Source: Nitrososphaeraceae archaeon
GTDB lineage: Archaea > Thermoproteota > Nitrososphaeria > Nitrososphaerales > Nitrososphaeraceae
Direction: 5' to 3'
NCBI GenBank assembly: GCA_035297365.1
Contig: DATGZA010000077.1
Coordinates: forward strand, 1 to 55,526
DNA length: 55,526 nt
A program made the translations under genes and the position numbers. Of this stretch, positions 199-27,442 are shown one piece after another (position 1 is the first letter of the stretch; the number at the start of each line of letters is the position of its first letter). The notes under the pieces are model-generated. The model saw only the letters and a program-made list of their open reading frames with translations, was not told the origin of the DNA and did no database searches.

Positions 199-1320
199 TT
201 ATTGAATAAATTTTTGAAGGATCATTTCTGTCCACCTTCTTCCGCTGCTCTTCAGTACGTGACACTCGATACCTAACAATAATTCTCTCATCATCTTCTT
301 TTCATCCTCTAATAAATCGTAAGCTGTTTTACCTTCGAACCTAACATATTTTATTAAATCGCTATATGGAGGAAACAGAAAAGCGTCATCACTATTCTCT
401 ATTGCTCTTTTTAAAGCATCATCAGTTGATATCTTCTCCATTTTCTCGACGTTCTGTCCTTCTTCCCCTTTCTCCAAGAAAAAAAGGAAGTTTATCATTG
501 TCTTGTCTTGAATCTTAGCTTCTTTTATGATATCCCTTATATGATATTTTGGAGGTTTTATTTTTGTCTGTCCTATTGTATTTATTGTAAAAATTGGGAC
601 ATTATGGTCAGCTAGCTTGTGCATCAAACTCCTACCTGTTTTTGAATGAATTAGACTTCTAATCCTCATTCCTTTTTTATCATTACTTTCATTTACTTCA
701 TCTTGCTTCTGTTCTACAGACTGTGCATCTATAGCCGTTTTGTAAGTGTGTGAACTAATAGTCATCGATTTTGGAAAACATAGAGCCTGGTTAGGTAGAT
801 TTATTATAGTCATATCATCCGATAAAAAGGAAAATCCTTTTTTTACACATTTGATGACAGTAGTTGTCTTTCCTGTGTCAGGTGGGGCAGAAAGAAAAAA
901 ACCAATTCCATCAGGCGTTGACATACAAGCAGAGTGTAAAAGGATATAACCTTTAGAAAGAAAGAGAAATCTCAACAGAGGTTCAATCAAATTAACATAG
1001 GTAACATGCTTTGACTTTGAAATTAACTCGTTAATTAAAATCTCTAGTTTATTACAATCAACATTTATCTGAAATTGTGCACCAGACCTCCCAAAATGCT
1101 CGGTATATTTTATCTCATAAGACGTACTTCCAGATTCAAAGTCTTTTACAATTAATTTTCTTTTTGTACGCATTTTTGACATATCTGGATCTCTAGAAAA
1201 GGAATTGACAGACAATGTGATATCCGGTTCACTGAATTCTTTTGATACAAAATATTCCAATTCCTGTAAATTTATCTCAGATTTAAGCTTGATTATGTCA
1301 TGAATATTATAGTAATACAA
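199..1320 (-). CDS. HPr-kinase-like P-loop protein
   Basis: LLHSAC motif, Walker A variant SAPPDTGKTT and FLSDD motif as in HprK-related kinases; TTG start. Confidence 0.7.
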   Translation of the reverse strand: MYYYNIHDIIKLKSEINLQELEYFVSKEFSEPDITLSVNSFSRDPDMSKMRTKRKLIVKDFESGSTSYEIKYTEHFGRSGAQFQINVDCNKLEILINELISKSKHVTYVNLIEPLLRFLFLSKGYILLHSACMSTPDGIGFFLSAPPDTGKTTTVIKCVKKGFSFLSDDMTIINLPNQALCFPKSMTISSHTYKTAIDAQSVEQKQDEVNESNDKKGMRIRSLIHSKTGRSLMHKLADHNVPIFTINTIGQTKIKPPKYHIRDIIKEAKIQDKTMINFLFFLEKGEEGQNVEKMEKISTDDALKRAIENSDDAFLFPPYSDLIKYVRFEGKTAYDLLEDEKKMMRELLLGIECHVLKSSGRRWTEMILQKFIQ

Positions 1321-1648: not shown

Positions 1649-2452
1649 GTGCAAACTAATCATCATCAAGATACATTTAAAACTAAAAGTATGTTCACTT
1701 TATCGATAATTATTCCTACTTATAATGAATCTGGAAATATTATCAAATTATTAGACAAGATCAAAGAAAATCTTTATCATAATATATTTACCGAAATTAT
1801 TGTAGTTGATGACAGTTCTCCAGACGGTACAGGAAATATTGTTCAAAATTATATAGCCAATGATGATGATTACAAGAAAAAAAACAATTCATTTAAAGAG
1901 AATATTAACTATTCAATACACGTTCTTAATAGAAAAGAAAAGAATGGATTGATTCCTGCTATTCTTGAAGGTGTAAAATTCTCCCAGGGTGATTATATAC
2001 TTGTTATGGATGCAGACTTTTCGCATCCTCCAGAAATTATTCCTCGAATGGTTGAAAAGTTATTAGATGATTCTAATTCAATAGTTATTGCATCAAGATA
2101 TATAAAAAATGGAGCAATAGTTGGCTGGCCATTTAAAAGAAGACTAATCAGCAAAGGTGCTGCGATAATCGCAAAAATTGGGTTACATGTCAATAATGTC
2201 ACAGATCCAATGTCTGGATTCTTTGCTGTGCCACGATCTTTAATGGAAAATTTACAAATTGATACGAAGGGTTACAAGATCCTATTAGAAATTCTCGTTA
2301 AATCAAAACATATGCACATCTACGAAATTCCATATACATTTACTGATAGAAAATCAGGTAAAAGTAAGATGGGTTATAATGTTATTTTTGATTATATTGG
2401 TTCAGTATGGCAGTTATATAATTACGGCAGAAAAAAATACGAAAAGAAATAA
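1649..2452 (+). CDS. Polyprenol/dolichol-phosphate mannose synthase-like GT2
   Basis: IIIPTYNE, VVDDSSPDGT, MDADFSHPP, DPMSGFF, GYKILLEIL, RKSGKSK motifs. Confidence 0.9.
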   Translation: MQTNHHQDTFKTKSMFTLSIIIPTYNESGNIIKLLDKIKENLYHNIFTEIIVVDDSSPDGTGNIVQNYIANDDDYKKKNNSFKENINYSIHVLNRKEKNGLIPAILEGVKFSQGDYILVMDADFSHPPEIIPRMVEKLLDDSNSIVIASRYIKNGAIVGWPFKRRLISKGAAIIAKIGLHVNNVTDPMSGFFAVPRSLMENLQIDTKGYKILLEILVKSKHMHIYEIPYTFTDRKSGKSKMGYNVIFDYIGSVWQLYNYGRKKYEKK

Positions 2453-2524: not shown

Positions 2525-4075
2525 GTGTTGGGTGATGATGAAATAAGTCAACTGATTGAAAAGAAAGGATATGGTAAGAGCAACAAGATTGCATTACTTC
2601 TTATTCCATTAATATTAAGTGCCTTTACCCACACTTGGAATTTACTTGACTTTCCAAATTTGCATATTGACGAGGGACATTACATGAGAAAAACCATGTC
2701 TACGTTACAGGGCGAAAGTCTTCAACCACAGGATCGTTATTTTGCTCCTTATTTCGGTCAAATACTCATGGCTGGTATTATGGGATTAATCGGATATCCA
2801 GATTCGCTCAATCCTTCACCTACTGAAAATTCTATTCAAACTCTTTATCTAGTTCCACGATTAATTATGAGCCTTTTTGCAGTGATAGATACATTTCTAG
2901 TTTTTAAAATAACAGAAAGAAGATATGGTAGCAAAATTGCATTTATTGCGTCGATTCTTTTTGCAGTTGTACCCTACGGTTGGGCACTAAGACGAATATT
3001 TCTGGAATCGATACAATTACCATTACTGTTGACTTCGATTCTCCTAGTACTTTATTTGAAACAGAATTCTGACCAGGCGAAAAATACATTGGGATTCAGA
3101 AATATCTCTTTAATTCTTCTTTCAGGTGCATTTTTAGGTCTATCTATATTTACCAAGATTCCGGTTTTTACAATGATTCCACTGATAGGTTATCTTGTAT
3201 ATACAAATAGTCCTAACAAAAAACTAAAAAGCCTTGGACTTTGGTTTATTCCAGTTTTTCTTATTCCCTTGTTATGGCCAGCACATGCATATTCCATAGG
3301 TGAATTAAATATCTGGATTGATGATGTATTACACCAAACTCAAAGAGAAAGCAAGCCTCTAGTCAATTCCTTCACGTCTTTTGCAGAATCGGACCCAGTT
3401 TTATTCATATTGGCAATTGGCGGTCTTATCTACGCCGCTATTAGGAAAGACCTTTTCATCTTGTTATTTACTATCCCCTTTTTGCTATTTCTATACTGGA
3501 TTGATTTTGTGTCTTCCTTTCATTTTATTCCTTTGATGCCGGCATTTTCAATAGCAGGAGCAAAACTAATAGTAGAATTATCCGATCGTATTCCAAATAT
3601 AAAAATAAGGAAAATAACACCATATGCTGTAACATCTGCAATTACTATATTTGGATTGGCTACTACCATAATTCTTCTCTCTATCGATGCTAATTCTTCA
3701 ATCATAAAATCGCAGGCCGTGGTCATAGACTATATGCTAAAAAGCAATGGTACTGTAACTTTAGTAAGCAGTCCATTATTTGTCTGGATTCCTGAGCAAA
3801 TATTTCATATAGATATGGATGAGAGGAGCTATTTCTCCGCCAAACCGCTGAAAACTGGTGATTATGTAATAATTTCTGATAATGGATATAAAAAGATCAT
3901 GAAAGAAACAAGTAAAAGAGGTACATTCCATAAAACATTATTTGCAGAGACCCATTTAATAGAAACAATCAAACCAGATAATTCCATAAAAAAATATAAC
4001 ATAAACATTTATCCCTACACGAATCTAAAAGCATCTCCTGTATCAAAAGAGATAGATATTAGAGGAAACTACTGA
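2525..4075 (+). CDS. GT-C fold membrane glycosyltransferase (GT39/PMT/ArnT-like)
   Basis: DEGHY motif after first TM helix, many TM helices, GLSIFTK motif; follows Dol-P-sugar synthase. Confidence 0.8.
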   Translation: MLGDDEISQLIEKKGYGKSNKIALLLIPLILSAFTHTWNLLDFPNLHIDEGHYMRKTMSTLQGESLQPQDRYFAPYFGQILMAGIMGLIGYPDSLNPSPTENSIQTLYLVPRLIMSLFAVIDTFLVFKITERRYGSKIAFIASILFAVVPYGWALRRIFLESIQLPLLLTSILLVLYLKQNSDQAKNTLGFRNISLILLSGAFLGLSIFTKIPVFTMIPLIGYLVYTNSPNKKLKSLGLWFIPVFLIPLLWPAHAYSIGELNIWIDDVLHQTQRESKPLVNSFTSFAESDPVLFILAIGGLIYAAIRKDLFILLFTIPFLLFLYWIDFVSSFHFIPLMPAFSIAGAKLIVELSDRIPNIKIRKITPYAVTSAITIFGLATTIILLSIDANSSIIKSQAVVIDYMLKSNGTVTLVSSPLFVWIPEQIFHIDMDERSYFSAKPLKTGDYVIISDNGYKKIMKETSKRGTFHKTLFAETHLIETIKPDNSIKKYNINIYPYTNLKASPVSKEIDIRGNY

Positions 4076-4233: not shown

Positions 4234-5565
4234 ATGACTCTTTTAAATAATAATATTGAAAAAATTTCTTTTACTATTTTCATATTTGCTGGTATGCTTC
4301 TTTTATCAATATCTCTTGATGATATTGATGCTCAATCCAAAAAGAAATCAAAAAAAGATATCAATCCCATTTTAACTGATCCGAATTTAAAAGCTGAATT
4401 GATTATAGATGATCTGAATTTTCCAATAGGTATGGAAATTATTGGAAATGATGACTTTTTAATAATAGAAAAGAATACAGGTATAGTAAAAAGAATAGCT
4501 AATGGACAAGTAACTCAACTATTGGATCTGAATGTTGCATCAGAGAGTGAAAGAGGTCTTTTAGGAATTGCTTATTTGAATTTATCTAAATCGGGAAAAT
4601 TTTCAGAAGATGATGCTTCTTTAATTCCTTCTTATGTTTTTCTTTATGCTACTGAAACAGAAGGTCAGGACAATGGTAATATTTTAGGAAATAAACTTTA
4701 TAGATATGACTTTATTGATGGAAAGCTAGTAAATCCGGTACTGCTTTTGGATTTACCATTCACTCCAGGACCATCTCATAATGGCGGGGTATTGAGAATT
4801 GGACCAGATGGAAATTTGTATCTTGTTATGGGTGATCTTAATAGAATCAAAGATCCCAGCGGAGATACTATTGCCCAAAATCTTGAAGGAACATCTCTTC
4901 CAGATGGTAGAGGAGGTGTATTAAGAATTACACCCGATGGGGATACTGTCAACGATGGCTTCAGTTTGGGTAATTTAGGTCTACTAGACAAATATTATGG
5001 ATATGGTATTCGAAACAGTTTTGGTATTGGATTTGATAGTATTACAGGATATTTATGGGACACAGAAAATGGTTCTCATTATGGTGATGAAATTAACATT
5101 ATTAAGCCTGGCTTTAATAGCGGATGGAGACAAGTATTAGGAACTCCTAGTTTGTATAAGAGTATGACTGGTCAAGATTTTGATAGAAACAAGCTAATTA
5201 CATTTAATAATAAAGGCAAATATTACGATCCAGCTTTAACATGGAATCAAACCATCGCTCCCACCACAATTGCTTTTATTCATACAGACACATTAGGCGA
5301 TGAATATAAAGATGACGTGTTAGTAGGCGGTGTAAAAAACGGCACATTGCTTCATTTTGATCTTAATTCTACTAGAACCGGATTACAATTGACTGGACCA
5401 TTGGCTGATGGAATAGTTAATACTCCCTCAGAAATTAATGATGCGGTATTGGGTACGGGATTTGGTATTATTACAGACATAAAGATAGATCCAACAGATG
5501 GAGATTTATTTGTGATCGCCTCCAATACAAAAAATGGAAAAGTATTCAAAATTTCTCAATCATAA
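4234..5565 (+). CDS. Secreted PQQ-dependent sugar dehydrogenase (sGDH/Asd beta-propeller)
   Basis: Signal peptide; ERGLLGIA, HNGGVLRIGPDGNLY, YGIRNSFG, TENG..DEIN, GFNSGW motifs. Confidence 0.85.
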   Translation: MTLLNNNIEKISFTIFIFAGMLLLSISLDDIDAQSKKKSKKDINPILTDPNLKAELIIDDLNFPIGMEIIGNDDFLIIEKNTGIVKRIANGQVTQLLDLNVASESERGLLGIAYLNLSKSGKFSEDDASLIPSYVFLYATETEGQDNGNILGNKLYRYDFIDGKLVNPVLLLDLPFTPGPSHNGGVLRIGPDGNLYLVMGDLNRIKDPSGDTIAQNLEGTSLPDGRGGVLRITPDGDTVNDGFSLGNLGLLDKYYGYGIRNSFGIGFDSITGYLWDTENGSHYGDEINIIKPGFNSGWRQVLGTPSLYKSMTGQDFDRNKLITFNNKGKYYDPALTWNQTIAPTTIAFIHTDTLGDEYKDDVLVGGVKNGTLLHFDLNSTRTGLQLTGPLADGIVNTPSEINDAVLGTGFGIITDIKIDPTDGDLFVIASNTKNGKVFKISQS

Positions 5566-5881: not shown

Positions 5882-7759
5882 TTATCTTTTTATATTGTTA
5901 TCCTTAATCATCCTTTTTCGTCTCAAGAAAAAGAAAATTCCAGCTGAAACGCCAATTAGGATTGACAAAATTAATATCGTGATTAACATAGGAGTTTTGG
6001 TCGCTTCAATTTTGAAAATATATGATAATCCGTCATTAATAAAAGAAAATTGTATATTATTTCTTTTGTCAACCGAAACCAGTTCAGAAACTGTTTCATT
6101 TGTTTTTAAAAAAAATTGACTGCCAGAATCGAACCCCTCTACAATAAATTTTGTCTGCATTTTTGGCTCCGCAAAGACAGCATTCCATTTTTTATAATCC
6201 TTATTTTTGGAAAAATCATTATTAATTGATGAAATATTTACATGAGATAAATTAGGAACAACATACATACCAATAGTTGTCAGTTTGGTAAAGTTTTTAA
6301 TGGGTAGTATAATGACTGTATTGTTATTTGGAGATGCAATGTTGGTAACATTATTACCGTCTAACAATTTATTATCCATATTAACTATCTTGAGATTACT
6401 CTTCTTGTCAAAGAATAAAATAGAAGTATTATTAAAGTACGTATTCATTAGGATACTGTTCTTTGATAATTTTATATAATAGTCAACATTCTTATTTTTA
6501 TCTACTACGTTGGATTCAAAATTGTTCTTGAAAGTTCTATCCAATCTAATACCATGATTTAATCCACCTTCAATCACATTTCCAACAAATTTGTTATTTT
6601 TTGTTGCATAATCTGCTATATTTATTCCACTGTTCATTGATTTTCGGATGATGTTATTTTCAATCGTATTTAGAGAAGAATTCGAATATATATTTATACC
6701 ATAGTTATTACTTCCCGTAATGTTATTTTTTGTTATTAAATTACGACCAGTTTTTTTTAGAAAAATACCATTTCCGTTTTTGTCAATGATATTGTTATTG
6801 ATACTATTATCTTCTGACTCTGCTATCATTATACCCATGGTATTGGATTTTATCTTGTTACTTTCAATAATTACCTTCTTTGCTTGTTTGTCTACCAGTA
6901 TTCCAATACCAATATTATTTTCTAAAACATTATTTTTGATATCCACTGAATTGCAACCTCTTAGACATGCGATTGCATGTAAATTATTTTCATGTATCGT
7001 GTTATCAAAAACTTTAATATTGTTTGTTTTGGTGTCTAATTTAATACCTTCAAAATTGCTTTTTGATATGTCATTATTCTCAATTGTAATATCAGAAACA
7101 TTATTCACCAAATGTAAACCCAAATAATTTCCAGATATTGTATTATTGCTAATTAAACTCCCTTTACCAGAAAAATATGTTATTCCTTCTGTTCCAAGGT
7201 AACCCTTATATCCTAAATTCTCTAGGTAGGAATTTGTAATATTTGTCTTTCCAGAAGAATCCCAAAAGGTTAAGATATAAGGTCTAACGGTTTCAGGAGA
7301 GCTAACAACAGGTTGGGAATCACTTGTAGAATTCCACGAAGTTATTCTAGTATTATCTATTATTAAATTTCCTCTTGATGTGATGGAATAAGGTATATTG
7401 CTTGAATAATTGGAAGCTATTTTTATAACTTTAGATTTCGAACCATCAATAATTAATGTACCATTTTCTAATACTAGAATATTAGATCTTAACAACCATT
7501 CTTTATTTCCAATGCTTTCTAGGATATTTGAATTATTAAAAAAAGAAAATATCGTAGGAATCTCTACATTGTCATCACAAACTATTATTGTTTTTGTGAT
7601 GTTGTCATATTTCAAACAAATATTATCTCTGCCACTTTGTTCATTCACTTCATTTTGGTTGACTGCCATCGCTTCCAAAAATAAAAAATTAAATGCTAAA
7701 ACTAGTACAGAAAAAAACAAGGAAAAATGTACTAGTCTAACAATTAGTTGATAACGCAA
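5882..7759 (-). CDS. Membrane-anchored right-handed parallel beta-helix protein, AlgG-like
   Basis: Signal peptide; GNLIIDNTRITSWN...RPYIL...NITNSYLENLGY resembles AlgG; many NNxI..GI repeats; C-terminal TM helix with RRKR tail. Confidence 0.75.
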   Translation of the reverse strand: MRYQLIVRLVHFSLFFSVLVLAFNFLFLEAMAVNQNEVNEQSGRDNICLKYDNITKTIIVCDDNVEIPTIFSFFNNSNILESIGNKEWLLRSNILVLENGTLIIDGSKSKVIKIASNYSSNIPYSITSRGNLIIDNTRITSWNSTSDSQPVVSSPETVRPYILTFWDSSGKTNITNSYLENLGYKGYLGTEGITYFSGKGSLISNNTISGNYLGLHLVNNVSDITIENNDISKSNFEGIKLDTKTNNIKVFDNTIHENNLHAIACLRGCNSVDIKNNVLENNIGIGILVDKQAKKVIIESNKIKSNTMGIMIAESEDNSINNNIIDKNGNGIFLKKTGRNLITKNNITGSNNYGINIYSNSSLNTIENNIIRKSMNSGINIADYATKNNKFVGNVIEGGLNHGIRLDRTFKNNFESNVVDKNKNVDYYIKLSKNSILMNTYFNNTSILFFDKKSNLKIVNMDNKLLDGNNVTNIASPNNNTVIILPIKNFTKLTTIGMYVVPNLSHVNISSINNDFSKNKDYKKWNAVFAEPKMQTKFIVEGFDSGSQFFLKTNETVSELVSVDKRNNIQFSFINDGLSYIFKIEATKTPMLITILILSILIGVSAGIFFFLRRKRMIKDNNIKR

Positions 7760-7916
7760 TTGTGTTACTAATTTAAAAGTAGTCTGCTATATAAATGACG
7801 TTACAATTGTTAATCAGGTTTTCGCTATTTTTTTGCCATAAAATATTTATAGAAAAAAATGTAATTGTAGGGATACATATATAAAAAAAGTCTTCTAAGT
7901 ATACTCTGAAATATTA

Positions 7917-9212
7917 TTGTCAGTAAATAAATGTAAATATGTGTTTCTTCTGGTATCTTTTTCTATTCTACTTGTATTTAATATATGTATTTTTCAAACA
8001 AAGCCATTGCCGATAGAAGCTCAGCAACCATTATATAAAGAAAATAACGGACCTCCTTTCAATGGTGTAGATATGCATGGATACTATACACGTACCTCGC
8101 AAGCACGTGATGTAGACAACGATTTACCCCCAAATTACTTTGAAGAAAGTTTCAAGATTTTATCTTCATCAGGTATGAATCATGTTCGTTTTTTGGTTTT
8201 TTGGGAGGCGTACGCTAAAAATCCAGTACAATTTATCGAAGAGTTAAAAACAGTTGCGACCACAGCAGACAAATATAACATACATGTATTATATGATAAT
8301 CACCAATTTCATACCTCTTCATATCTGAATCCCCAAAGAGGAACTGGTTTTCCTTTTTCATTATTTGAAGGAGATTTTGCATTTTTTTATGGTAGTGGAG
8401 GAGGAACTAAATATCCTACTGCTAAAGTATGGTGGTCAAATTGGTGGGACAGAAACGTTCATGATAAGGATGGAAAGGATGGATGGACTTTACAAACAGA
8501 ATATTTTAAAAAGATAGTTGATACCGTTGACAATCATAAAAGTACAATTGGATATGAAATTTTAAGTGAACCACAAGTACATGATAAAACTCAATGGTCA
8601 AAGATAGGTAAATACAATACCTTCATGACAGATTTTCTAAGAAAGAGTACCACTAAAACTTTAGCATATAGTATGAGTATTCCTGTCTCTTTACAAAGTG
8701 CTATAGAACTTAATCCGATTAACTTGGCAAAAATGGCACCTGCAAATACCACAAACGTAATATTCAAAATAAGTGTTTATGGATTGCCACAGGGAAATAC
8801 TTATCAGGAATCTAGACTAGGTAATTTCGTTCAAGCTGCCGGTCTTGCAAACGTTCCGCTTTACATTGGTGAATGGAACAATGTAAAACGAGATAAAATA
8901 ATTGATGAAGAAGGAGAGATTATTACATTTATCAATGAAACATTCAGTAGTATTAACCAGACCGAGGCGGATCTTATGGTTGCAACTTTTAAAAATCTGG
9001 ACGTTTGGGGTTCTGCATTTTGGCAATGGCGAGTAGATTCTCACCAGGTCCAAAACTTTAACCTAATTAACGTTACTGATGGCAAAATATATACTACAGA
9101 ATTTTTTGATATAGTTAGAAACGCGTATCAATCTGTCTATGGTAATGCCACACACTCGACCAATACCACCAAGGTTCCAGTTACTGAAAGTCAATTGATG
9201 CTATCTGGATAG
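7917..9212 (+). CDS. Secreted glycoside hydrolase, GH5/clan GH-A
   Basis: Signal peptide; NHVRF..W, DNHQ, GYEILSEP (acid/base), VPLYIGEW (nucleophile), FWQW. Confidence 0.75.
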   Translation: MSVNKCKYVFLLVSFSILLVFNICIFQTKPLPIEAQQPLYKENNGPPFNGVDMHGYYTRTSQARDVDNDLPPNYFEESFKILSSSGMNHVRFLVFWEAYAKNPVQFIEELKTVATTADKYNIHVLYDNHQFHTSSYLNPQRGTGFPFSLFEGDFAFFYGSGGGTKYPTAKVWWSNWWDRNVHDKDGKDGWTLQTEYFKKIVDTVDNHKSTIGYEILSEPQVHDKTQWSKIGKYNTFMTDFLRKSTTKTLAYSMSIPVSLQSAIELNPINLAKMAPANTTNVIFKISVYGLPQGNTYQESRLGNFVQAAGLANVPLYIGEWNNVKRDKIIDEEGEIITFINETFSSINQTEADLMVATFKNLDVWGSAFWQWRVDSHQVQNFNLINVTDGKIYTTEFFDIVRNAYQSVYGNATHSTNTTKVPVTESQLMLSG

Positions 9213-9298
9213 ATTTTCATGGTCACATAAATCTATTTTTATTATTTGTTTCCCTAGTTGGATAATAAATAAATAAAATTCAAAAATTCAAAAAATAT

Positions 9299-11203
9299 TT
9301 ATGTCATAATTTGAGGTCTCTTTGATAGATATTTCGGTAAGTTCAATGGCATAAATGGCTTATCTTGTATCTCTATCTTGATTTTATTTATCAATAAGTC
9401 TAGGTTGGATTCATATTGATTGCTGCTGGTACGATCCCTTACAATCACCATAGTAGTTTCGACTTCCCTATCTCCTATCACTATGATAAATGGAATCCAC
9501 TCAGTTTCTGCTTCCCTTATTCTTTTTCCAACAGATTCTTCCCTATCGTCTATATCGGCCCTTATCTGATTTTTGGCAAAAATCTGTTCGATCTCCTCCG
9601 ATTTTTCAACATGATTTTTTTTTATGGGAATAATTCTTACTTGAGTATGCGTTAACCATAATGGAAATGATGGTCTTTCTCCTTTGTCCATAATTTTTGC
9701 AGCTTTTTCTAATAGAGCATATAATACTCTTTCAACAGCTCCACTCGGAGAATTATGTAAAATTATGGGATTCTTCTTTACTCCACTTTCGTCAACGAAT
9801 TCAATATTGTATCTTTTGCCATTTTCAACATCAATTTGATCAGTAGATAAGGCCGCTGCCTTTCCCAAATTATCAATGTAATTAAATTCCCACTTTAAAA
9901 CAAAATAGAAGAATCTTTCCTTCCACATTTCTACAAGTATTGGTTTTCCAAATTTTTTTAGGATTTGTAAAATAAAATCTCTATTCTCAATATAAAAGGG
10001 TTCTGTGAATCTGATTGCCATCTCTATGTCTTCCTCTATTTTCAAGTTGAAAGCAGATATTACATCTATAGACAAGTCCAATCTTTTTAGGAATTCTTCC
10101 TTTGATTGTTCCATATCTTTACATAATGCATGACAATCTGGCATACTAAATGCCCTGAGTCTCCTTAATCCTACTAATTCCCCGCTTTTTTCTCTTCTAA
10201 AACTATATCTAGTTAATTCATAAAGTTTTAGTGGAAGATTTTTATAAGTAATATGAAAATCCTTTGCCATTAAAAATTGACCAAAACATGCTGCAAATCG
10301 AAGAAATAATGTTTTATTATCCGATGATATATTATATTGTCTCGCAGGAAAGCGGTTAAAATAACTCTCCATAGATGGATGTTTTGTATCATACATGATT
10401 GGAGTTTCTACCTCAATTCCTCCATATTCAAGGACTTTTTTGGTTACATATTGTTCAATCAAAGATTTCATCAGTCTACCTTTTGGATAGAATCTAATAT
10501 TTCCTGGATCAGATGCAGGTTCGTAATCTGCTATACCCATTTTTCTCATTAATCTAACATGAGGAGGTTGTTCATCCACAATTCTTCTTTTGGCGGTTTC
10601 ATAATCTATAAGTTTCTTAAAGTTACCATCATTATTATAGTTGAACTTCTCCAAAGGAATCAAATTTCCATCCATATCTAGTATGAACCATGCTGATTCT
10701 TGTTTTTCTTCAAATTTTAAAGCTGACGATACAACCTCTATTTCATGCACATGGGAACGATCAGAAACCTCTCTCCCTATATTGTCTTGACTTTTGTTAA
10801 TGATTTTAAAATTTTCTGCAAGTGGATGTCCTTTTACACTTATGTTCAACGATTTTGTCCAACCAAAAGGAGCTCTTTCTACATTGTTAATGATCTTTTT
10901 CGCTAATTTCTCAAGTTCTATGATGAATTCAAAAGCATTTTTTGGTGAAGCTAAATCGGAACTTAAATGTGCATACGGATATATTAATAATTTATTGACT
11001 TTAATATTTTCTAAATAATTTTTTATCTCATTCAGGGCCTTGTCAATGATCTGTCTATCATCATATTTTTCTATGCAGACAAAGGCTACGACTAAATTAT
11101 CTAATCTCTTTGTTTCTAGTTTTATTTCATCTTCTGCATCTTTAAGTTCCTTTGAAATAGGTCTGTATTCAATAAAGTCAGCATGTAATTGCAGTAAACG
11201 CAT
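9299..11203 (-). CDS. thrS: Threonine--tRNA ligase (archaeal type)
   Basis: MRLLQLHADF editing domain, YPYAHLS, LRFAACFG, LRRLRAFSMPDCH, anticodon-binding C-terminus. Confidence 0.97.
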   Translation of the reverse strand: MRLLQLHADFIEYRPISKELKDAEDEIKLETKRLDNLVVAFVCIEKYDDRQIIDKALNEIKNYLENIKVNKLLIYPYAHLSSDLASPKNAFEFIIELEKLAKKIINNVERAPFGWTKSLNISVKGHPLAENFKIINKSQDNIGREVSDRSHVHEIEVVSSALKFEEKQESAWFILDMDGNLIPLEKFNYNNDGNFKKLIDYETAKRRIVDEQPPHVRLMRKMGIADYEPASDPGNIRFYPKGRLMKSLIEQYVTKKVLEYGGIEVETPIMYDTKHPSMESYFNRFPARQYNISSDNKTLFLRFAACFGQFLMAKDFHITYKNLPLKLYELTRYSFRREKSGELVGLRRLRAFSMPDCHALCKDMEQSKEEFLKRLDLSIDVISAFNLKIEEDIEMAIRFTEPFYIENRDFILQILKKFGKPILVEMWKERFFYFVLKWEFNYIDNLGKAAALSTDQIDVENGKRYNIEFVDESGVKKNPIILHNSPSGAVERVLYALLEKAAKIMDKGERPSFPLWLTHTQVRIIPIKKNHVEKSEEIEQIFAKNQIRADIDDREESVGKRIREAETEWIPFIIVIGDREVETTMVIVRDRTSSNQYESNLDLLINKIKIEIQDKPFMPLNLPKYLSKRPQIMT

Positions 11204-11233
11204 ATTCTAGAAACCTTCTAAATCTCTATCTTT

Positions 11234-11443
11234 TTATCCCCATCTGGCCCTTTCATTTTCTCGATCTTCTTTGGTAGCCTTTTTCCATTCCTTATAGTGA
11301 TTTCTGCATAGGTATGCTCTCTTGCTCGAAGAAATAATATTTAAATCTGAAGCCATCATACCTTTGCTTTCACTCATCGACCTTTCGGCATTTTCTTCAC
11401 ACCCTTGAACACTGCATTTTATACCCTTGTTTATCCTGCCCAT
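11234..11443 (-). CDS. Small Zn-finger-like protein upstream of thrS
   Basis: CSVQGC...YLCRNH; ends 30 nt before thrS; TATA-like element about 23 nt upstream of ATG. Confidence 0.75.
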   Translation of the reverse strand: MGRINKGIKCSVQGCEENAERSMSESKGMMASDLNIISSSKRAYLCRNHYKEWKKATKEDRENERARWG

Positions 11444-11541
11444 TCTATATTAAATTATTTTTGAAATATAAAAGCTATACCGAATTGTAATGACATTCTC
11501 TTATTCCTGCTTTTTAAACTCGTTAGCGGGTCTTTTGAAAT

Positions 11542-13029
11542 TTATTTTATAATGTAAATTACTACAAAAATTAAACAACTAATTATTTCAGAGGTCAATA
11601 TTAAATTTTTTATATTTTTTAACTGTGACGTTCCAATTTTTCTATTCTTAGATCTTATCCATTTTTGATCTCTGATTGTTACAAGTGCATATAGCTTGAC
11701 GAACGCACTGATAAAGTTAATCACAACGTATATTGGTAAAAGTGTTATATCCTTGGGATAGCGTTTAAGATGCGGTATTATTTTTATTGCTCTTCCTATC
11801 ATCCATAATGCCAATATTGAAAGTGCTAATATGTATTGGTTCATGACAAGTGCTACTCCGAAGAAGATAGGACCAAAAAATAGAGTAAAAATAGATATAA
11901 ATCTATCAATAATATGAAATGCCAAAAATGGATGTTTCCATGCCCAACCGTCCCATAAACTAACTAAATCTGAATTGTGACTATTTCTTGACCATCTTAG
12001 TCTTTGACTCCAAAATGTCTTGAAATCAGGAGCAGCGTAAGAATATATTACTGCATTGCTCTGGTAATATGTTTTCCAACCCTTGCTATGAACTATTCTT
12101 GTAAGACATTTATCTTCTCCAGACTCTTTCTTTCTTTCTAGCACTATCTCATTCAGAAATTCATCCAAACTTCCTTCAATGATATCCTTTCTATATAGTG
12201 AAGTTCTTCCAGATAAACAAGATAATGCTTGACCCATTGCAGTCTGCGCTGGTAAATCATAATAATTTCTCATATCCCAAAAGATATCAGTTATCTTTTG
12301 CCAGATTGTTCGTCTTTCAATAGGGTGTTGCCTTGTGGTTACGCCTCCTATTGTGGGATCTTTAAACGGGGATAATATTGAATTTCTTATATCTTTTTCC
12401 CATATGGTATCACTGTCTACTAGAGCAACTATCTTGTTTCTTGCTTCTCTAATACCCTCTGCTAAAGCAGGTCTTTTGCCAGGTTTATCGATAACAATGA
12501 GTTTCATGAATGACCTATCTATTGATATTCTTTGAAAGACCTCGATACAATTCTTGTCATTATGATCTATAACACCAATGATCTCATCAGGTTTATTTTG
12601 AATCCATGATTCTATCGCATCTTGAAAAATAGTGGGGTCTTCATTGTATACAGGAGTTATTATGCTATATTTATGGAGATGTTCATCATTACAGTTACTA
12701 ATGGGATAATAAAGTAGTGAAGATGATTTTTTGAATATCCATATACTCCATCTCCATAACCCTATTAGTCCTAATGGTATGTATATCCATATGATCTGAT
12801 AATAAGTGATAGCGGCAAAACCTACACCTTCAGATACCTTGAGAATAAATGTTTCAATTGGTTTTACAACTGAAACGTGATTAAATAATCCAGGAGAAAA
12901 AGTAAGAAGTATTGAAAATATGAGAAGTACAGATAAAGCTACAATTACCGTAATAATCGTAATTTCTTCTGGTAATCTACTATCTACTAGCCTGTACATC
13001 TCTTGTTTCTTACTTCTTATTATAGCCAA
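11542..13029 (-). CDS. Processive GT2, hyaluronan-synthase/NodC-like polysaccharide synthase
   Basis: TPVYNED, VDSDT, CLSGRTSLYR, GEDKCLT, QRLRW (D,D,D,QxxRW) with N- and C-terminal TM helices. Confidence 0.85.
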   Translation of the reverse strand: MAIIRSKKQEMYRLVDSRLPEEITIITVIVALSVLLIFSILLTFSPGLFNHVSVVKPIETFILKVSEGVGFAAITYYQIIWIYIPLGLIGLWRWSIWIFKKSSSLLYYPISNCNDEHLHKYSIITPVYNEDPTIFQDAIESWIQNKPDEIIGVIDHNDKNCIEVFQRISIDRSFMKLIVIDKPGKRPALAEGIREARNKIVALVDSDTIWEKDIRNSILSPFKDPTIGGVTTRQHPIERRTIWQKITDIFWDMRNYYDLPAQTAMGQALSCLSGRTSLYRKDIIEGSLDEFLNEIVLERKKESGEDKCLTRIVHSKGWKTYYQSNAVIYSYAAPDFKTFWSQRLRWSRNSHNSDLVSLWDGWAWKHPFLAFHIIDRFISIFTLFFGPIFFGVALVMNQYILALSILALWMIGRAIKIIPHLKRYPKDITLLPIYVVINFISAFVKLYALVTIRDQKWIRSKNRKIGTSQLKNIKNLILTSEIISCLIFVVIYIIK

Positions 13030-13254
13030 TTCTAATTTATATGTAGATCGAAAAATTTTTCATGATAGAATTATGAAAAAAATGTATTCGTATCTTTTTT
13101 TTCATATTTGTTATATCGATATTTATATTAGTATTTTATAGAACAATATATAAAAGAATTCCTTCTAACTATCTAGAATAAAAAGAGATCGTAGTACTTA
13201 TATATCCAGATTATTTAAATGGATTTTTGTATATAGAGGGTTGCGAAATTAATA

Positions 13255-14133
13255 ATGGTAAAAATTTCAATAATCGGTTCCGGTGTTGTGGGATCTGCAA
13301 CTGGCAAGGGATTTAGTAAGTTAGGCCATGACGTATTATTTTATGATATTTCTAAAACGAGGTTGGATACATTAAAGAAAGAAGGATATCAGATTGCAAA
13401 GAATGTTAAAGAGGCATTAGGACATGGTGTAATTACTTTTGTGTGTGTGAATACCCCAACAGGAGAAGATGATGAGCAGGATTTATCACAAGTAAAATCT
13501 GCTTTATTTTCTATAACAGATGCATTAAATTATAAAGAAAATGGAAAAGAGACTTTGATAGTATTTAGAAGTACAATGTTACCAGGAACAATGAAAGAGG
13601 TTGTTGTTGATTATATGGATAAAAACTGTAAATTACAACGAGGGAAAAACTATAATATATGTTATAATCCTGAATTTCTAAGACAGGATACTGCCTATGA
13701 GGATTTTTTTGTTCCCGACCGAGTCATTATTGGAGAAGAGTTTGCAGGTAGTTCAAAGTTATTACAAGAAATTTACAAGCCTTTAACTGAAAAGATTATC
13801 GTAACGAGCTTTGCGGCAGCTGAAATGATAAAATATACTTCCAATTGTTTCTTGTCATTGAAGATTTCATTCTTTAACGAAATCGGCATGCTCTGCAAAG
13901 AATTAGCGATTGATGATAAGGCTGTTAGCCTTGGAGTGTCATTAGATAAGCGTATAGGTAAATACGGAACAATGGCAGGAAAGCCATTTGAAGGTGCATG
14001 TCTGCCAAAAGATACAAAGGCATTGTCCACATTTATTAAAAAACGTGGGTGGACGCCTGATTTATTGAAGGTTACATTGGATATTAACAAAAAAATAGAA
14101 GAATTGGTGACAAAAACAGCATTTTCGAAATAA
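13255..14133 (+). CDS. UDP-glucose/GDP-mannose dehydrogenase family protein (short form)
   Basis: GSGVVG Rossmann motif, CVNTP, RSTM.PGT, NPEFLR, AEMIKY..N.FL..KISFFNE, GACLPKD. Confidence 0.88.
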   Translation: MVKISIIGSGVVGSATGKGFSKLGHDVLFYDISKTRLDTLKKEGYQIAKNVKEALGHGVITFVCVNTPTGEDDEQDLSQVKSALFSITDALNYKENGKETLIVFRSTMLPGTMKEVVVDYMDKNCKLQRGKNYNICYNPEFLRQDTAYEDFFVPDRVIIGEEFAGSSKLLQEIYKPLTEKIIVTSFAAAEMIKYTSNCFLSLKISFFNEIGMLCKELAIDDKAVSLGVSLDKRIGKYGTMAGKPFEGACLPKDTKALSTFIKKRGWTPDLLKVTLDINKKIEELVTKTAFSK

Positions 14134-25006: not shown

Positions 25007-27442
25007 ATGAATAACAATGAAAAAAAATTGAATTATAAGTTACTATGTCTATCTTTCTTCATATTTATTTTTGTCATTTGTATTTTCTCTCCTTATCATG
25101 CATCTTCTGAAGTAGATGTTGTTAATAACGATTCTAAATCCCTAATATTTTCAGAGGATTTACAAAGAAACTTCACGCTATTTAACAACCTCGAAAGAAT
25201 TCTCACAAAGATAAATTTGGCAGATGATAGTTTTGAGTCTGGTAATATACACGATGCTTTTTCATATGCATATTTTCCCCATCAGGTGATTTTACCATTA
25301 ATAAAAGATGAATTGTTATTAATCGATCCTATGTTGTCTTCAAAATTAGAACATTTGTTGACGGACCTTCCAATATATCTTGTCAATATTAAACCGGAGG
25401 GGGATTTGGTGAGGAAAACCTTTTCAGAAACACGAACTACGATTGAATCAATTGAAAATAATTTAATCAATATAAAAAGTCTTGATTCAAAATATTTTCT
25501 AATTCAAAGTTCTATTGTGATACTGAGAGATGCTAAATCAGTATTAGGAAATATCAAATCAAACCAATCTCAACTGGAGAGTGAGCTATATTATCAAATT
25601 ATCGACGAACTTGTTAATAGATCTGAATATCAAATTAGCCGCATTTCTAATTCAATTCCTAGTCAAGAATTTGATTCTGTTTCGGATCTGTATTTGCAGA
25701 TAGGAAATTATACTGCAAACCATGATTATAATGCTATTTTTAAATCAATGAATATTTTAGAAAAGGAACTAATGAAATTATCTAAAAGTTCTTTATCCAA
25801 AAGTCTTCCTTTAGAGATCCAAAATTATTTCTCTAATATTGATTCTCTATTAAACATTGTAGTAAACGAAATCAAGGACAACAATGACTATAAAAAAGCA
25901 GATAAGGCTGCTATTTCAGCATACTTAGATAATTATGAATATCTTGAAGCCTCAATAGAACAAATTGATCCAGAACTAATGTTGGAAATTGAATTAAATA
26001 TGAGGGAAGGATTAAGACAAATGATAAAAGACAACGCACCATCAGAACAGATTGAATTCTTTGTAAATGAAATTTTACAAAAACTGGGCAAAGCAGAGAA
26101 TGTTTTATTAAATGACGCATCAATCACAACTGTAGTCACCAACAGAGGGATCGTCAATCATTATAATGGCAATCAACAGAGCAATAATTTAGCAGATATA
26201 AATAAACTTAGTAAAGGGTTCGGAATTTTTCAAGGTGAAAAAAAGAATATTGGCGAAGCTTCTGAAGAAGAGAAAAGCGAGGTAAGAAGCGATGTAGATC
26301 AAATTAGATTAAGTTTACAAGAAGTATTAAATTTCTATAAAGAAGACAAATATGAAGAATCTCTAATAACCGCACGCTCTGCATATTTAGATAGTTATGA
26401 AAAGATAGAGTTACCATTGAGACCAATTGATCCTGATTTCACGCTAGAAATGGAAATTAAATTCGCAGAGCTTAGAAACTTGATAGAAAAGCATGCCTCA
26501 TATACAGAAGTCATGAGCAAAACAAGTGAAATTCAATCGGGTCTAGATGAGTCAGAAAGACTCGTATCAGGATTAGGCTCAATAGCACCAGGAATAGCCT
26601 TTTCGTCTTCATTTTCTATAATTTTTAGAGAAGGATTGGAATCTGCTTTGATCATTGGTGCAATAACTACATATCTAGAAGCTTCACGAAACGAAAAATT
26701 CAAAAAACATGTTTATTTTGGAATTATTCTTGCAGCTGGTGCTACAGCTATTACTTGGTTTGTTGCGTCATTTCTTATAGAAATATCTGGAGCAAGTAAA
26801 GAACTTATTGAGGCAATAGCAGGAATATCTGCCGTTGCAGTACTTTTCTGGGTATCATTTTGGATTTTGAATAAAATTGAAACCAAGAAATGGATTGAAT
26901 TCGTGAAATCCAAAGTTTGGAAGGCCACAGCAACCGGAAGCGTGGTGGTCTTTGTGATGCTTTCGTTTTTTACAGTATATAGAGAGGGTTTTGAAACTGT
27001 TCTGTTTTATCAAGCAATGTTTTCTTACGCAAAAAATATGGAATTATTTGTTACGTCTGGATTGATTATTGGACTCATTGTGATAGTCTCGATCGCGTTC
27101 ATAATCAAGAAGTTGGGCAAGAAATTGCCATTAAGGGTTCTTTTTGGATTTACGATGGGGGTTGGTGCTTATATGTCTATTACTTTTTTTGGTAATGCCA
27201 TTCGTGAATTTCAAGAGATTGGATACATCTCTACAACCCATTTATTTGGAATAATTCCTAGATTGGATGTCAATCTCGCAACAATGACCGGAATACATCC
27301 TACTTTGGAGAGTATTTTAGGACAAGTCATTTTGTTATCTGTATATCTTGTTGCCTCTATGTATATTCTCTTTATTCAACCAAGGAAAAAGAAAATGATA
27401 GAGTCATCACGTAAATCAATGTCAGATTTCAAGCAAAAATAA
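25007..27442 (+). CDS. FTR1-family high-affinity iron permease with large extracellular N-terminal region
   Basis: REGLE and REGFE motifs in the C-terminal TM domain; signal peptide; AYLDxYE repeats. Confidence 0.92.
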   Translation: MNNNEKKLNYKLLCLSFFIFIFVICIFSPYHASSEVDVVNNDSKSLIFSEDLQRNFTLFNNLERILTKINLADDSFESGNIHDAFSYAYFPHQVILPLIKDELLLIDPMLSSKLEHLLTDLPIYLVNIKPEGDLVRKTFSETRTTIESIENNLINIKSLDSKYFLIQSSIVILRDAKSVLGNIKSNQSQLESELYYQIIDELVNRSEYQISRISNSIPSQEFDSVSDLYLQIGNYTANHDYNAIFKSMNILEKELMKLSKSSLSKSLPLEIQNYFSNIDSLLNIVVNEIKDNNDYKKADKAAISAYLDNYEYLEASIEQIDPELMLEIELNMREGLRQMIKDNAPSEQIEFFVNEILQKLGKAENVLLNDASITTVVTNRGIVNHYNGNQQSNNLADINKLSKGFGIFQGEKKNIGEASEEEKSEVRSDVDQIRLSLQEVLNFYKEDKYEESLITARSAYLDSYEKIELPLRPIDPDFTLEMEIKFAELRNLIEKHASYTEVMSKTSEIQSGLDESERLVSGLGSIAPGIAFSSSFSIIFREGLESALIIGAITTYLEASRNEKFKKHVYFGIILAAGATAITWFVASFLIEISGASKELIEAIAGISAVAVLFWVSFWILNKIETKKWIEFVKSKVWKATATGSVVVFVMLSFFTVYREGFETVLFYQAMFSYAKNMELFVTSGLIIGLIVIVSIAFIIKKLGKKLPLRVLFGFTMGVGAYMSITFFGNAIREFQEIGYISTTHLFGIIPRLDVNLATMTGIHPTLESILGQVILLSVYLVASMYILFIQPRKKKMIESSRKSMSDFKQK

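Follow-up and report, generated by a model that had tools for sequence, protein, structure and literature searches.

A candidate synthase-dependent pathway for a uronate-containing surface polysaccharide in Nitrososphaeraceae archaea

Could four neighboring genes of a Nitrososphaeraceae archaeon encode a synthase-dependent pathway for an acidic exopolysaccharide? Our literature search found no such pathway described in archaea, and the lineages that would possess it include the most abundant soil ammonia oxidizers. The genes lie in a stretch of 55,526 nucleotides (contig DATGZA010000077.1, assembly GCA_035297365.1), which we refer to as the window. A preliminary description had claimed four open reading frames in two divergent pairs, namely, a hyaluronan-synthase-like GT2 with an NDP-sugar dehydrogenase and an anchored AlgG-like beta-helix protein with a secreted GH5, and had read them as one unit making a hyaluronan- or alginate-like product. 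All four are present where they had been placed, and the members of each pair are divergent, with intergenic gaps of 157 and 225 bp. A further gene, thrS, had gone unmentioned and separates the two pairs. The interval contains the following genes:

5882-7759, minus strand: AlgG-like beta-helix protein (625 aa)
7917-9212, plus strand: GH5-fold hydrolase (431 aa)
9299-11203, minus strand: threonine-tRNA ligase thrS (NF003068, 792 bits; cut-off, 484)
11542-13029, minus strand: processive-type GT2 (495 aa from a TTG start)
13255-14133, plus strand: short NDP-hexose 6-dehydrogenase (292 aa)

The thrS gene is a housekeeping gene inside the interval and no pathway member. It lies outside the four-gene block in loci of the genera g5, g10, and g17; in all seven g10 and g17 loci that were fetched, the four genes adjoin one another with no thrS among them.

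We then determined how these genes are linked in 151 genomes of the family, 63 of which carry the GT2; genome G091, included in an initial set of 64, was removed because its match (E 3e-32) is a distant GT2. The dehydrogenase (E <= 1e-50) was found in 58 of the 151 genomes, all of them GT2 positive. Counted over related genomes, which are not independent samples, 57 of the 63 GT2 genomes, from 9 of 10 genera, have the dehydrogenase no farther than 2 kb from the GT2, the GH5 lies within 6.5 kb of the GT2 in 47 genomes and across three different gene orders, and all four genes occur together in 27. In all 13 g5 loci, the GH5 starts 31 to 85 bp 3' of the dehydrogenase on the same strand, and in 21 of 21 g5 genomes the helix gene does not adjoin the GT2. 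The synteny proposed as a check is thus found in several genera of the Nitrososphaeraceae, and the reading of the four genes as one unit is upheld by a linkage that is kept across genera. These data also bear on a reading in which the GT2 and the dehydrogenase are biosynthetic and the GH5, together with the helix, scavenges outside carbohydrate and is nearby by chance. Such an arrangement would fit the position of thrS in the window, the GH5 matches in 79 of the 151 genomes (up to 9 copies in g5), the lack of a GH5 in the cassettes of bacteria and of another archaeal family described below, and a published interpretation of these GH5s as degradative (PMC11131427). However, the proximity to the GT2 in three gene orders, the fixed position after the dehydrogenase in g5, and the helix-GT2 fusions of bacteria argue against it, and we regard it as quite improbable.

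All motifs claimed for the GT2 are present (DSD 205, CLSGR 271, GEDKCLT 304, and QRLRW 342), and the D,D,D,QxxRW set (DSD 205, GED 304, and QRLRW 342) is conserved across 57 aligned rows. The start is probably the ATG at 12999, which yields a protein of 485 aa, as in most orthologues. The AF2 model (pLDDT 91) has Chlorella virus hyaluronan synthase (HAS) as its best Foldseek match (TM 0.68 over 465 columns), and its multi-helix membrane region is predicted to form a channel above the active site. We therefore consider the GT2 a putative polyuronate synthase and exporter of the processive, membrane-channel type. Alternatively, it might load a lipid with a single uronic acid or with a short chain, which the neighboring GT-C would pass to proteins or lipids, so that no free polymer is made. 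Four further genes lie upstream in the window:

199-1320, minus strand: HprK-like P-loop protein (weak TIGR04352 match)
1649-2452, plus strand: polyprenyl-phosphate-sugar synthase-like GT2 (PF00535)
2525-4075, plus strand: GT-C (PMT_2) membrane glycosyltransferase (PF13231)
4234-5565, plus strand: PQQ-type glucose/sorbosone dehydrogenase (PF07995)

The presence of the polyprenyl-phosphate-sugar synthase-like gene, a GT-C immediately following the GH5 in all 13 g5 loci, and the structural kinship of the GT2 with PcManGT (6yv7) and ceramide glucosyltransferase would accord with lipid-linked transfer. Yet polymerases score far higher than these non-processive kin in the profile search (E 1e-50 versus 5e-20) and in Foldseek (2e-20 versus 2.5e-12), and the bacterial orthologues are fused to polymer-acting helices. 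Furthermore, GT-C homologues are more widespread than the GT2 (103 versus 63 of 151 genomes, GT2-negative genera included), and none is labeled in 79 bacterial loci. We consider non-processive transfer improbable. Among 41 mapped loci, the HprK-like gene was found in 7 (genera g1 and g17), the polyprenyl-phosphate-sugar synthase-like gene in 9, and the glucose/sorbosone dehydrogenase, which has many paralogues in its own genome, in 11. The polyprenyl-phosphate-sugar synthase-like protein is GtrA fused in both scanned loci from other genera and possibly supplies a donor to the GT-C, whereas the HprK-like protein, the GT-C, and the glucose/sorbosone dehydrogenase are possible accessories; in each case the link is uncertain, as is the membership of the whole upstream block when weighed as part of the core.

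Which uronate, then, would be polymerized? By sequence as well as by fold, HAS is the best match of the GT2. Compared with Alg8-like references, so called from gene context only, the GT2 is closer to HasA in identity (26% versus 22%) and in hhalign (E 8e-42 versus 1e-22), and its QxxRW is intact as in HasA, unlike in the Alg8-like proteins; 13 conserved columns side with HasA and 12 with Alg8-like proteins only, the latter including R93, R254, R275, K307, and R413. These similarities are in line with a hyaluronan- or type-3-capsule-like copolymer, in which the dehydrogenase would form UDP-glucuronate, the HAS-like GT2 would insert glucuronate and a neutral sugar in turn, and cleavage at the neutral residues would fall to the GH5, an enzyme type suited to a polymer that has them. 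A more distant GT2 of Curtobacterium, whose locus also encodes a glycosyl hydrolase and a UDP-glucose/GDP-mannose dehydrogenase of the long type, points in the same direction. The proposed GT2 phylogeny, which included HasA (a single sequence), NodC, and Alg8-like proteins and in which long branches are flagged, argues against it: a 100/100 branch parts the GT2 family of the window from HasA and NodC, so that it does not group with class I hyaluronan synthases. The Alg8-like sequences fall inside the family on an unresolved branch of length 3.7. A FastTree phylogeny rooted on them was prone to long-branch effects, and we did not rely on it to place the root. The GT2 of G426, the sole match of a phylum search in 350 other genomes, was rejected as an orthologue, as it groups with HasA and NodC.

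The dehydrogenase contains PF03721 and PF00984 (TIGR03026, 238 bits; cut-off, 190) but lacks the C-terminal domain PF03720 that is present in the AlgD-like control. Residues K193, C249, K252, and D253 align with AlgD and UGDH, and the best PDB match is UDP-glucose dehydrogenase (E 1.5e-46), with AlgD at 5.8e-40. A clade supported at 98/97 unites the enzyme with 17 short dehydrogenases from bacteria and leaves out HasB, long UGDHs, and AlgD-like proteins; the exclusion of HasB speaks against the UDP-glucuronate copolymer. Short GDP-mannose dehydrogenases (GMDs) of the brown-algal type have about 300 to 320 aa, a Val in GxGxVG, and a Pro two residues before GGxCLPKD (PMC4782291). Judged by these published motifs only, the window enzyme (292 aa versus 315 to 320 aa in algae; GSGVVG and PFEGACLPKD) appears to fit this type in size, Val, Pro, and the shortened N-terminal fold. 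Among 30 short enzymes, 29 have the Pro, whereas all 4 long controls lack it. Since its size and residues resemble those of the algal enzymes, it is a putative GDP-mannose dehydrogenase and favors an alginate-type product. The bacterial protein nearest to brown-algal GMDs is from Ca. Woesebacteria (PMC11468063); among the 120 matches listed for a Chloroflexota short dehydrogenase (identity at least 63%), none is named algal, and phages and Bathyarchaeia, too, frequently have dehydrogenases of this short form. A ManC query against the genome of the window found nothing.

The helix protein consists of an AlgG-type N-terminal region plus a right-handed beta-helix. Its PDB matches are exclusively AlgG (4 sequences; best E 6e-10; residues 51 to 368), and its NF038177 score is 36 bits against a cut-off of 700. 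Hydrophobic segments at 3-34 and 594-614 suggest an N-terminal hydrophobic segment plus a C-terminal membrane anchor. At the position of AlgG YGIDPHD the window helix reads EGIKLDT, so that the catalytic Tyr and DPHD are missing, and the motif is absent in 13 of 13 loci of this genus. Y-G-x-D-P-H is kept in the g10 cluster helices (2/2) and in G566, a genome of another archaeal family, and stand-alone DPH helices also occur in GT2-negative genera. The dN/dS of the helix gene is 0.14 to 0.30. Mutation of DPHD leaves AlgG able to protect the chain (PMC4436075), and the chain-guiding role claimed earlier agrees with a dead active site; we thus view the protein as a putative chain guide that lost the epimerase motif in the genus of the window.

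The nearest bacterial GT2 relatives are from Patescibacteria and Chloroflexota. The window GT2 is 40 to 47% identical to bacterial GT2-LysM-AlgG-like fusions, 19 of 150 GT2 relatives resemble the window helix in their C-terminal part, and DPHD is kept in 9 of 17 aligned fusion helices. In 79 bacterial loci, ranked by a DPHD-fusion-led query that inflates the fusion counts, we found 68 GT2-helix fusions, a [YF]GxDPH helix in 73, an adjoining short dehydrogenase in 55, and, in 18 loci, a member of a PL7 alginate-lyase cluster whose representative matches PF08787 (E 4e-44). PL7 was found in 0 of the 151 family genomes (control, 4/5). G566, detected by an order-level genome search, has dehydrogenase, GT2, and helix in a row with YGLDPHT intact; neither its cassette nor those of the bacteria contain a GH5. 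A metagenome scan with a Nitrosocaldaceae GT2 retrieved 0 of 85 candidates. The Patescibacteria/Chloroflexota cassette thus shares with the archaeal one an orthologous GT2, the same short-dehydrogenase clade, and a homologous helix, but the archaeal helix is separate, anchored, without LysM, and motif-less in the genus of the window, the archaeal genes are mostly divergent, PL7 was not found, and the archaeal loci additionally contain a GH5 and, in many cases, a GT-C. Because of the fused DPHD helices, the short dehydrogenase, and the PL7 genes beside the GT2 of relatives, the context favors the alginate-type over the hyaluronan-type product of the earlier proposal, with both donor and product deduced from it, and we consider the UDP-glucuronate copolymer unlikely.

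Comparison with known systems provides further contrasts. (i) The Pseudomonas/Azotobacter alginate system (AlgD, Alg8/Alg44, AlgG, and AlgL) likewise combines a dehydrogenase, a GT2, an AlgG-type helix, and a chain-cleaving enzyme, and the window GT2 has WRW, GR, GDDK-type, and QKW features in common with Alg8-like proteins. It differs from them in its low identity (about 22%) and its QxxRW, the dehydrogenase differs from AlgD by the missing C-terminal domain, and the helix differs from AlgG by its membrane anchor and dead motif, with a GH5 standing for the lyase. No Alg44/c-di-GMP co-polymerase, AlgK/AlgE, or acetylation genes were found in the window or among recurrent neighbors of the 41 loci. 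(ii) Class I HAS with HasB (Chlorella virus HAS and Bacillus HasA) shares the single-protein synthase with channel and the adjoining NDP-sugar dehydrogenase, but the GT2 lies on a separate branch at 26% identity, with GEDK and SGR instead of GDDR and SGP, and has operons lack an AlgG-like partner. (iii) Brown-algal mannuronan C5-epimerases have DPH-type helices in common with relatives of the window, whereas the archaeal helices are DPHT/S or dead.

The GH5 assignment of the preliminary description stands on the predicted fold and both catalytic glutamates, but not on a sequence match, as no Pfam match at E 1e-3 (PF00150 included) and no PDB sequence match were obtained. Foldseek matches to GH5 begin at E 5e-12, and the nearest Atlas clusters carry PF00150 in 81 to 95% of members. 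At rank 20 is 6uje (CcsZ), a GH5 within the clostridial cellulose synthase locus of a single-membrane cell; that locus differs in its neutral glucan, the lack of a dehydrogenase, and about 14% identity. All 25 aligned rows have E218 and E319, which are the acid/base and nucleophile of a modeled (beta/alpha)8 barrel. The protein, exported or N-anchored, is a putative chain-trimming or release enzyme. GH5s cut neutral glycans and are not known to cut polymannuronate; a GH5 in place of the lyase suggests that neutral sugars, too, are part of the archaeal chain. The GH5s of NS-delta archaea have been cited as evidence for mixotrophy, in the sense of feeding on plant carbohydrate (PMC11131427). The glutamate motifs are also present in the published Delta1-GH5 sequences, and, in a visual comparison of about 85 N-terminal residues, Delta1-GH5-1 agrees with the cluster copy that comes after the dehydrogenase. 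The cluster therefore offers a testable alternative reading for these enzymes.

Taken together, the cluster quite probably directs the processive synthesis of some uronate-containing polymer. We assign a probability of about 0.5 to a single-membrane, synthase-dependent pathway that makes a mannuronate-based polysaccharide of the cell surface and that stems from a dehydrogenase-GT2-epimerase cassette also present in Patescibacteria and Chloroflexota. In this pathway, (i) the short dehydrogenase would convert GDP-mannose into GDP-mannuronate, (ii) the GT2, according to its predicted fold, would polymerize it and thread the chain through its own channel, (iii) the anchored helix would bind and guide the chain outside the cell, without epimerization in the genus of the window, and (iv) the linked GH5 might trim or release chains, replacing the bacterial lyase. 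Points against this mannuronate version are the overall closeness of the GT2 to HasA, the UDP-glucose dehydrogenase as best PDB match, the occurrence of short dehydrogenases in phages and Bathyarchaeia, the negative PL7 and ManC searches, the GH5 itself, the distance of the helix from the GT2 in g5, and the stand-alone DPH helices of GT2-negative genera. This GT2 family would be a concrete candidate for a non-Alg8 mannuronan synthase, a two-gene version of which would have practical use; in brown algae, the mannuronan synthase is a gap still open (PMC11468063). More doubtful is the broader proposal that the non-Alg8 mannuronate synthase of dominant, uncultured soil ammonia oxidizers shares the lineage from which brown algae obtained their short GMD and could model the missing algal synthase, with the epimerase turned into a scaffold, the lyase replaced by a GH5, and the GH5 cited for mixotrophy acting as a matrix remodeler.

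The suggested link to Nitrosocosmicus aggregates found no support, as no Nitrosocosmicus or Nitrososphaera label occurs among the named GT2 homologues; the GT2 is also absent from six listed single-contig family genomes. The genes on either side of thrS in Ca. N. franklandianus are polB1, arginase, two hypothetical genes, and trpA (PMC12448741). That paper describes no differential expression of CAZymes earlier proposed for biofilm; a tie of its strains to the window cluster is not evident there. A sigma-70 promoter scan, the wrong model for archaea, gave chance-level counts (64 versus 54 ± 7). Contigs of four soil metatranscriptome runs from three studies, runs with small word shares being left out, cover parts of the GT2, dehydrogenase, and GH5 genes, consistent with putative transcription. 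The RNA contigs also give thin cover over the helix gene, which we do not count as a finding.

The cluster is genuine and conserved; we read it as an archaeal form of polyuronate synthesis by a synthase-dependent route and put the probability that its product is a uronate polymer of any kind at about 0.7. The four open reading frames (ORFs) of the preliminary description, with every motif quoted for them, were confirmed in place. A profile search of the window added thrS (9299-11203), absent from that description, between the two divergent gene pairs. The four genes are the following:

5882-7759, minus strand: AlgG-like beta-helix protein; PDB sequence matches are AlgG only
7917-9212, plus strand: GH5 protein; predicted GH5 fold, two glutamates invariant
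11542-13029, minus strand: GT2; DSD, GED, and QRLRW present
13255-14133, plus strand: dehydrogenase, 292 amino acids; catalytic residues kept, stops after the central domain

The model of the GT2 had a pLDDT of 91 (57-row alignment), and its top fold match was Chlorella virus hyaluronan synthase (TM 0.68). The GH5 protein had no sequence match in Pfam or PDB. Going by the labels of its homologues, the window belongs to Nitrososphaeraceae.

Each of the four proteins was searched against one set of 151 Nitrososphaeraceae genomes. The GT2 matched in 64, and leaving out genome G091 (E value, 3e-32) gave 63 genomes with a GT2 orthologue; the dehydrogenase (1e-50) matched in 58, every one among these 63. 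The gene linkage proposed in the preliminary description holds across genera. (i) In at least 57 of the 63 genomes, no more than 2 kb separated the dehydrogenase from the GT2. (ii) GH5 lay within 6.5 kb of the GT2 in at least 47, for which 58 of 205 GH5 matches were entered and 55 were outside the matches listed. (iii) The beta-helix protein lay within 6.5 kb in at least 32. (iv) The complete set was present in at least 27, namely, 19 of 22 genomes of the window's genus (g1), 5 of 7 in genus g17, 2 of 2 in g10, and 1 of 2 in g6; in the remaining genera it was found in 0 of 30 genomes, among the matches listed. These counts are lower bounds, since 38 helix places were entered and some misses fall at contig ends. 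G077, an unpublished genome among the 63, was without linkage and supports no claim. The four genes were contiguous, without thrS, in all seven fetched g10 and g17 loci. In genus g5 the order was GT2, dehydrogenase, GH5, GT-C, and thrS, with no helix and with 31 to 85 bp between dehydrogenase and GH5 (13 of 13 loci). ThrS marks the cluster site in g1, g5, g6, and g10, in differing gene orders (window; L036-L049, L063-L066), and the his operon abuts the GT2 in g5. In G138 the cluster helix is broken into two ORFs (L034:5995-8029).

The proposed tie to Nitrosocosmicus aggregates found no support: the GT2 is missing from six single-contig family genomes, and thrS has other neighbors in "Ca. N. 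franklandianus" (excerpted text of PMC12448741). The flank polB1-arginase-thrS is common to g5 and N. franklandianus.

With respect to the synthase, the GT2 was overall nearer to HasA than to Alg8-like proteins in identity and profile comparisons. We then compared 87 columns conserved across 46 family rows with HasA and five Alg8-like proteins, the latter assigned by gene context. Thirteen columns agreed with HasA and with none of the five, and 12 agreed with the Alg8-like proteins only, including four arginines and one lysine; judging from the alignment, such basic residues would suit an anionic chain. On the tests run, the system appears to lie outside the Alg8/Alg44 and hyaluronan synthase families, though it probably works like an alginate system.

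A mannuronate-based polymer is the most likely version, at roughly even odds. One clade (98/97) took in 13 archaeal and 17 bacterial short dehydrogenases and left out AlgD-like proteins, HasB, and long UDP-glucose dehydrogenases. Brown-algal GDP-mannose dehydrogenases have 315 to 320 amino acids, an incomplete N-terminal fold, Val in GxGxVG, and Pro two residues before GGxCLPKDV (excerpts of PMC4782291). Compared by motifs and literature alone, the window enzyme resembles them in its GSGVVG and PFEGACLPKD, and relative to AlgD it has 15- and 5-residue gaps in the N-terminal domain. The nearest bacterial match of the algal enzymes is a "Ca. Woesebacteria" protein, and the brown-algal synthase is still to be identified, according to excerpts of PMC11468063; a Woesebacteria locus (L078) is among our best 79 of at least 582 bacterial loci. 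Against mannuronate speak the top PDB match of the dehydrogenase, a UDP-glucose dehydrogenase, the abundance of short dehydrogenases in phages, and the lack of a match to the ManC query in the window's own genome. Set against this last result, the window encodes mannosyl-3-phosphoglycerate synthase, an enzyme that consumes GDP-mannose. Three g5 genomes carry extra stand-alone short dehydrogenase copies (L162:7210, L163:7563, L164:7282).

The beta-helix protein of the window has EGIKLDT at the position of AlgG's YGIDPHD. The catalytic motif is gone from the cluster helix in all 13 loci of the window's genus and all five g17 loci and is retained in both g10 loci. The cluster helix is under purifying selection, with a dN/dS of 0.14 to 0.30 versus 0.05 to 0.20 for other genes (three pairs, dS saturated in two). 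AlgG mutated in DPHD loses epimerization and keeps chain protection (PMC4436075; mechanism, PMC4444821; both in excerpt). Stand-alone YGxDPH(T/S) helices occurred in 20 of 20 fetched loci, GT2-negative genera included; within the window's genus, 12 of 25 genomes carried them, and a search of the window's own genome found none. Stand-alone secreted AlgG-like helices are widespread in the family, also without a synthase (L167-L186, L070, L196-L207), at times in tandem with PQQ dehydrogenases and, in L069 and L070, fused to LamG.

The lyase family searched, PF08787, matched none of the 151 family genomes, as against 4 of 5 bacterial controls. Why a GH5 stands where a lyase is expected is the chief puzzle; its presence suggests that the chain includes neutral residues. 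The GC content is 30.5% in the window's own genome and 35.5 to 39.2% in the g5 loci, compared with 29% in NS-epsilon and 35 to 36% in NS-delta (PMC11131427), and Delta1-GH5-1 of that study belongs to the cluster GH5 family; compared by eye, it matches the L038 cluster copy in the N-terminal region. We infer that g5 is NS-delta and that the window is NS-epsilon-like. That study reads GH5s as degradative; its main text, as excerpted, is silent on hyaluronan and alginate, and its supplementary KEGG table lists hasA and algG among its rows. For the cluster copy, a place in a synthesis locus is the better reading; the remaining g5 copies may serve scavenging. Metatranscriptome contigs (4 runs) cover portions of GT2, dehydrogenase, and GH5, such contigs being no proof of transcription. 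The window's own genome has another GH5 of this family (41% identity), located beside a cytochrome P450 (L067:3349-4590, contig C87).

Upstream genes for a kinase-like protein, a lipid-sugar synthase, a GT-C, and a PQQ dehydrogenase often accompany the cluster and may be accessory to it, but GT-C homologues reach 103 of 151 family genomes. The lipid-sugar synthase (window 1649-2452) is without the GtrA domain that other genera have fused, and a separate short match lies on another contig (G000 C81:2221-2712). A 385-amino-acid protein with a weak PF13440 (flippase-like) match sits inside g17 clusters (L050-L054, protein cluster K26); its orthologue in the window's genome is on a different contig (G000 C27:16882-18012). 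Elsewhere in the window are an 800-amino-acid ORF with a C-terminal methyltransferase match only (27975-30377) and an 811-amino-acid FTR1 iron permease whose long N-terminal part has no match (25007-27442).

Beyond the family, the GT2 was found at the order level in 1 of 160 genomes (G566), where dehydrogenase, GT2, and helix are consecutive and the helix keeps YGLDPHT; this GT2 is 71% identical to one labeled "Ca. Nitrosocaldaceae." G566 also has a Pel9A-like helix (L195:17390-18430; E value, 1e-120), a companion of 17 of the best 79 of at least 582 bacterial loci. At the phylum level, 1 of 350 genomes matched (G426), with a GT2 that is HasA-like by tree. The G426 GT2 (L157:2844) is from another family of the phylum, has 36% identity to Bacillus HasA, and has no dehydrogenase on its 5.6-kb contig. 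No description of the archaeal cluster was found in the literature searched, subscription papers being outside its scope.

The nearest GT2 representatives outside the family showed 40 to 47% identity and often had 930 to 1,150 amino acids. In 19 of 150 nonfamily representatives the C-terminal region matched the window helix, with a LysM domain between GT2 and helix (one fusion scanned). A scan of genome contigs gave the best 79 of at least 582 bacterial loci, labeled Patescibacteria lineage (34), Chloroflexota (20), "Gammaproteobacteria"/"Bdellovibrionales" (19), or without assignment (6); L086 and L125, from the third group and from genomes of 0.9 to 1.1 Mb, are probably mislabeled Patescibacteria. 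A fusion protein headed the query, which favors fusions in the counts: among these 79, GT2-helix fusions occurred in 68 and [YF]GxDPH helices in 73. The short dehydrogenase adjoined the GT2 in 55, a PL7 alginate-lyase cluster (one representative domain-scanned) occurred in 18, with QIH in 16 of the 18, and none had a GH5 or GT-C label. The archaeal GT2s form a single clade (100/100, 11 rows), its fork with the bacterial fusions being unresolved. In six Chloroflexota loci (L110, L112, L115, L118, L119, L124) a 3,200-amino-acid protein, TPR-CHAT in the one scanned, follows the fusion gene. Rhizobium and Loktanella replicons (L154, L226) carry alginate-like operons, that of Rhizobium with a 1,248-amino-acid AlgG-containing protein.
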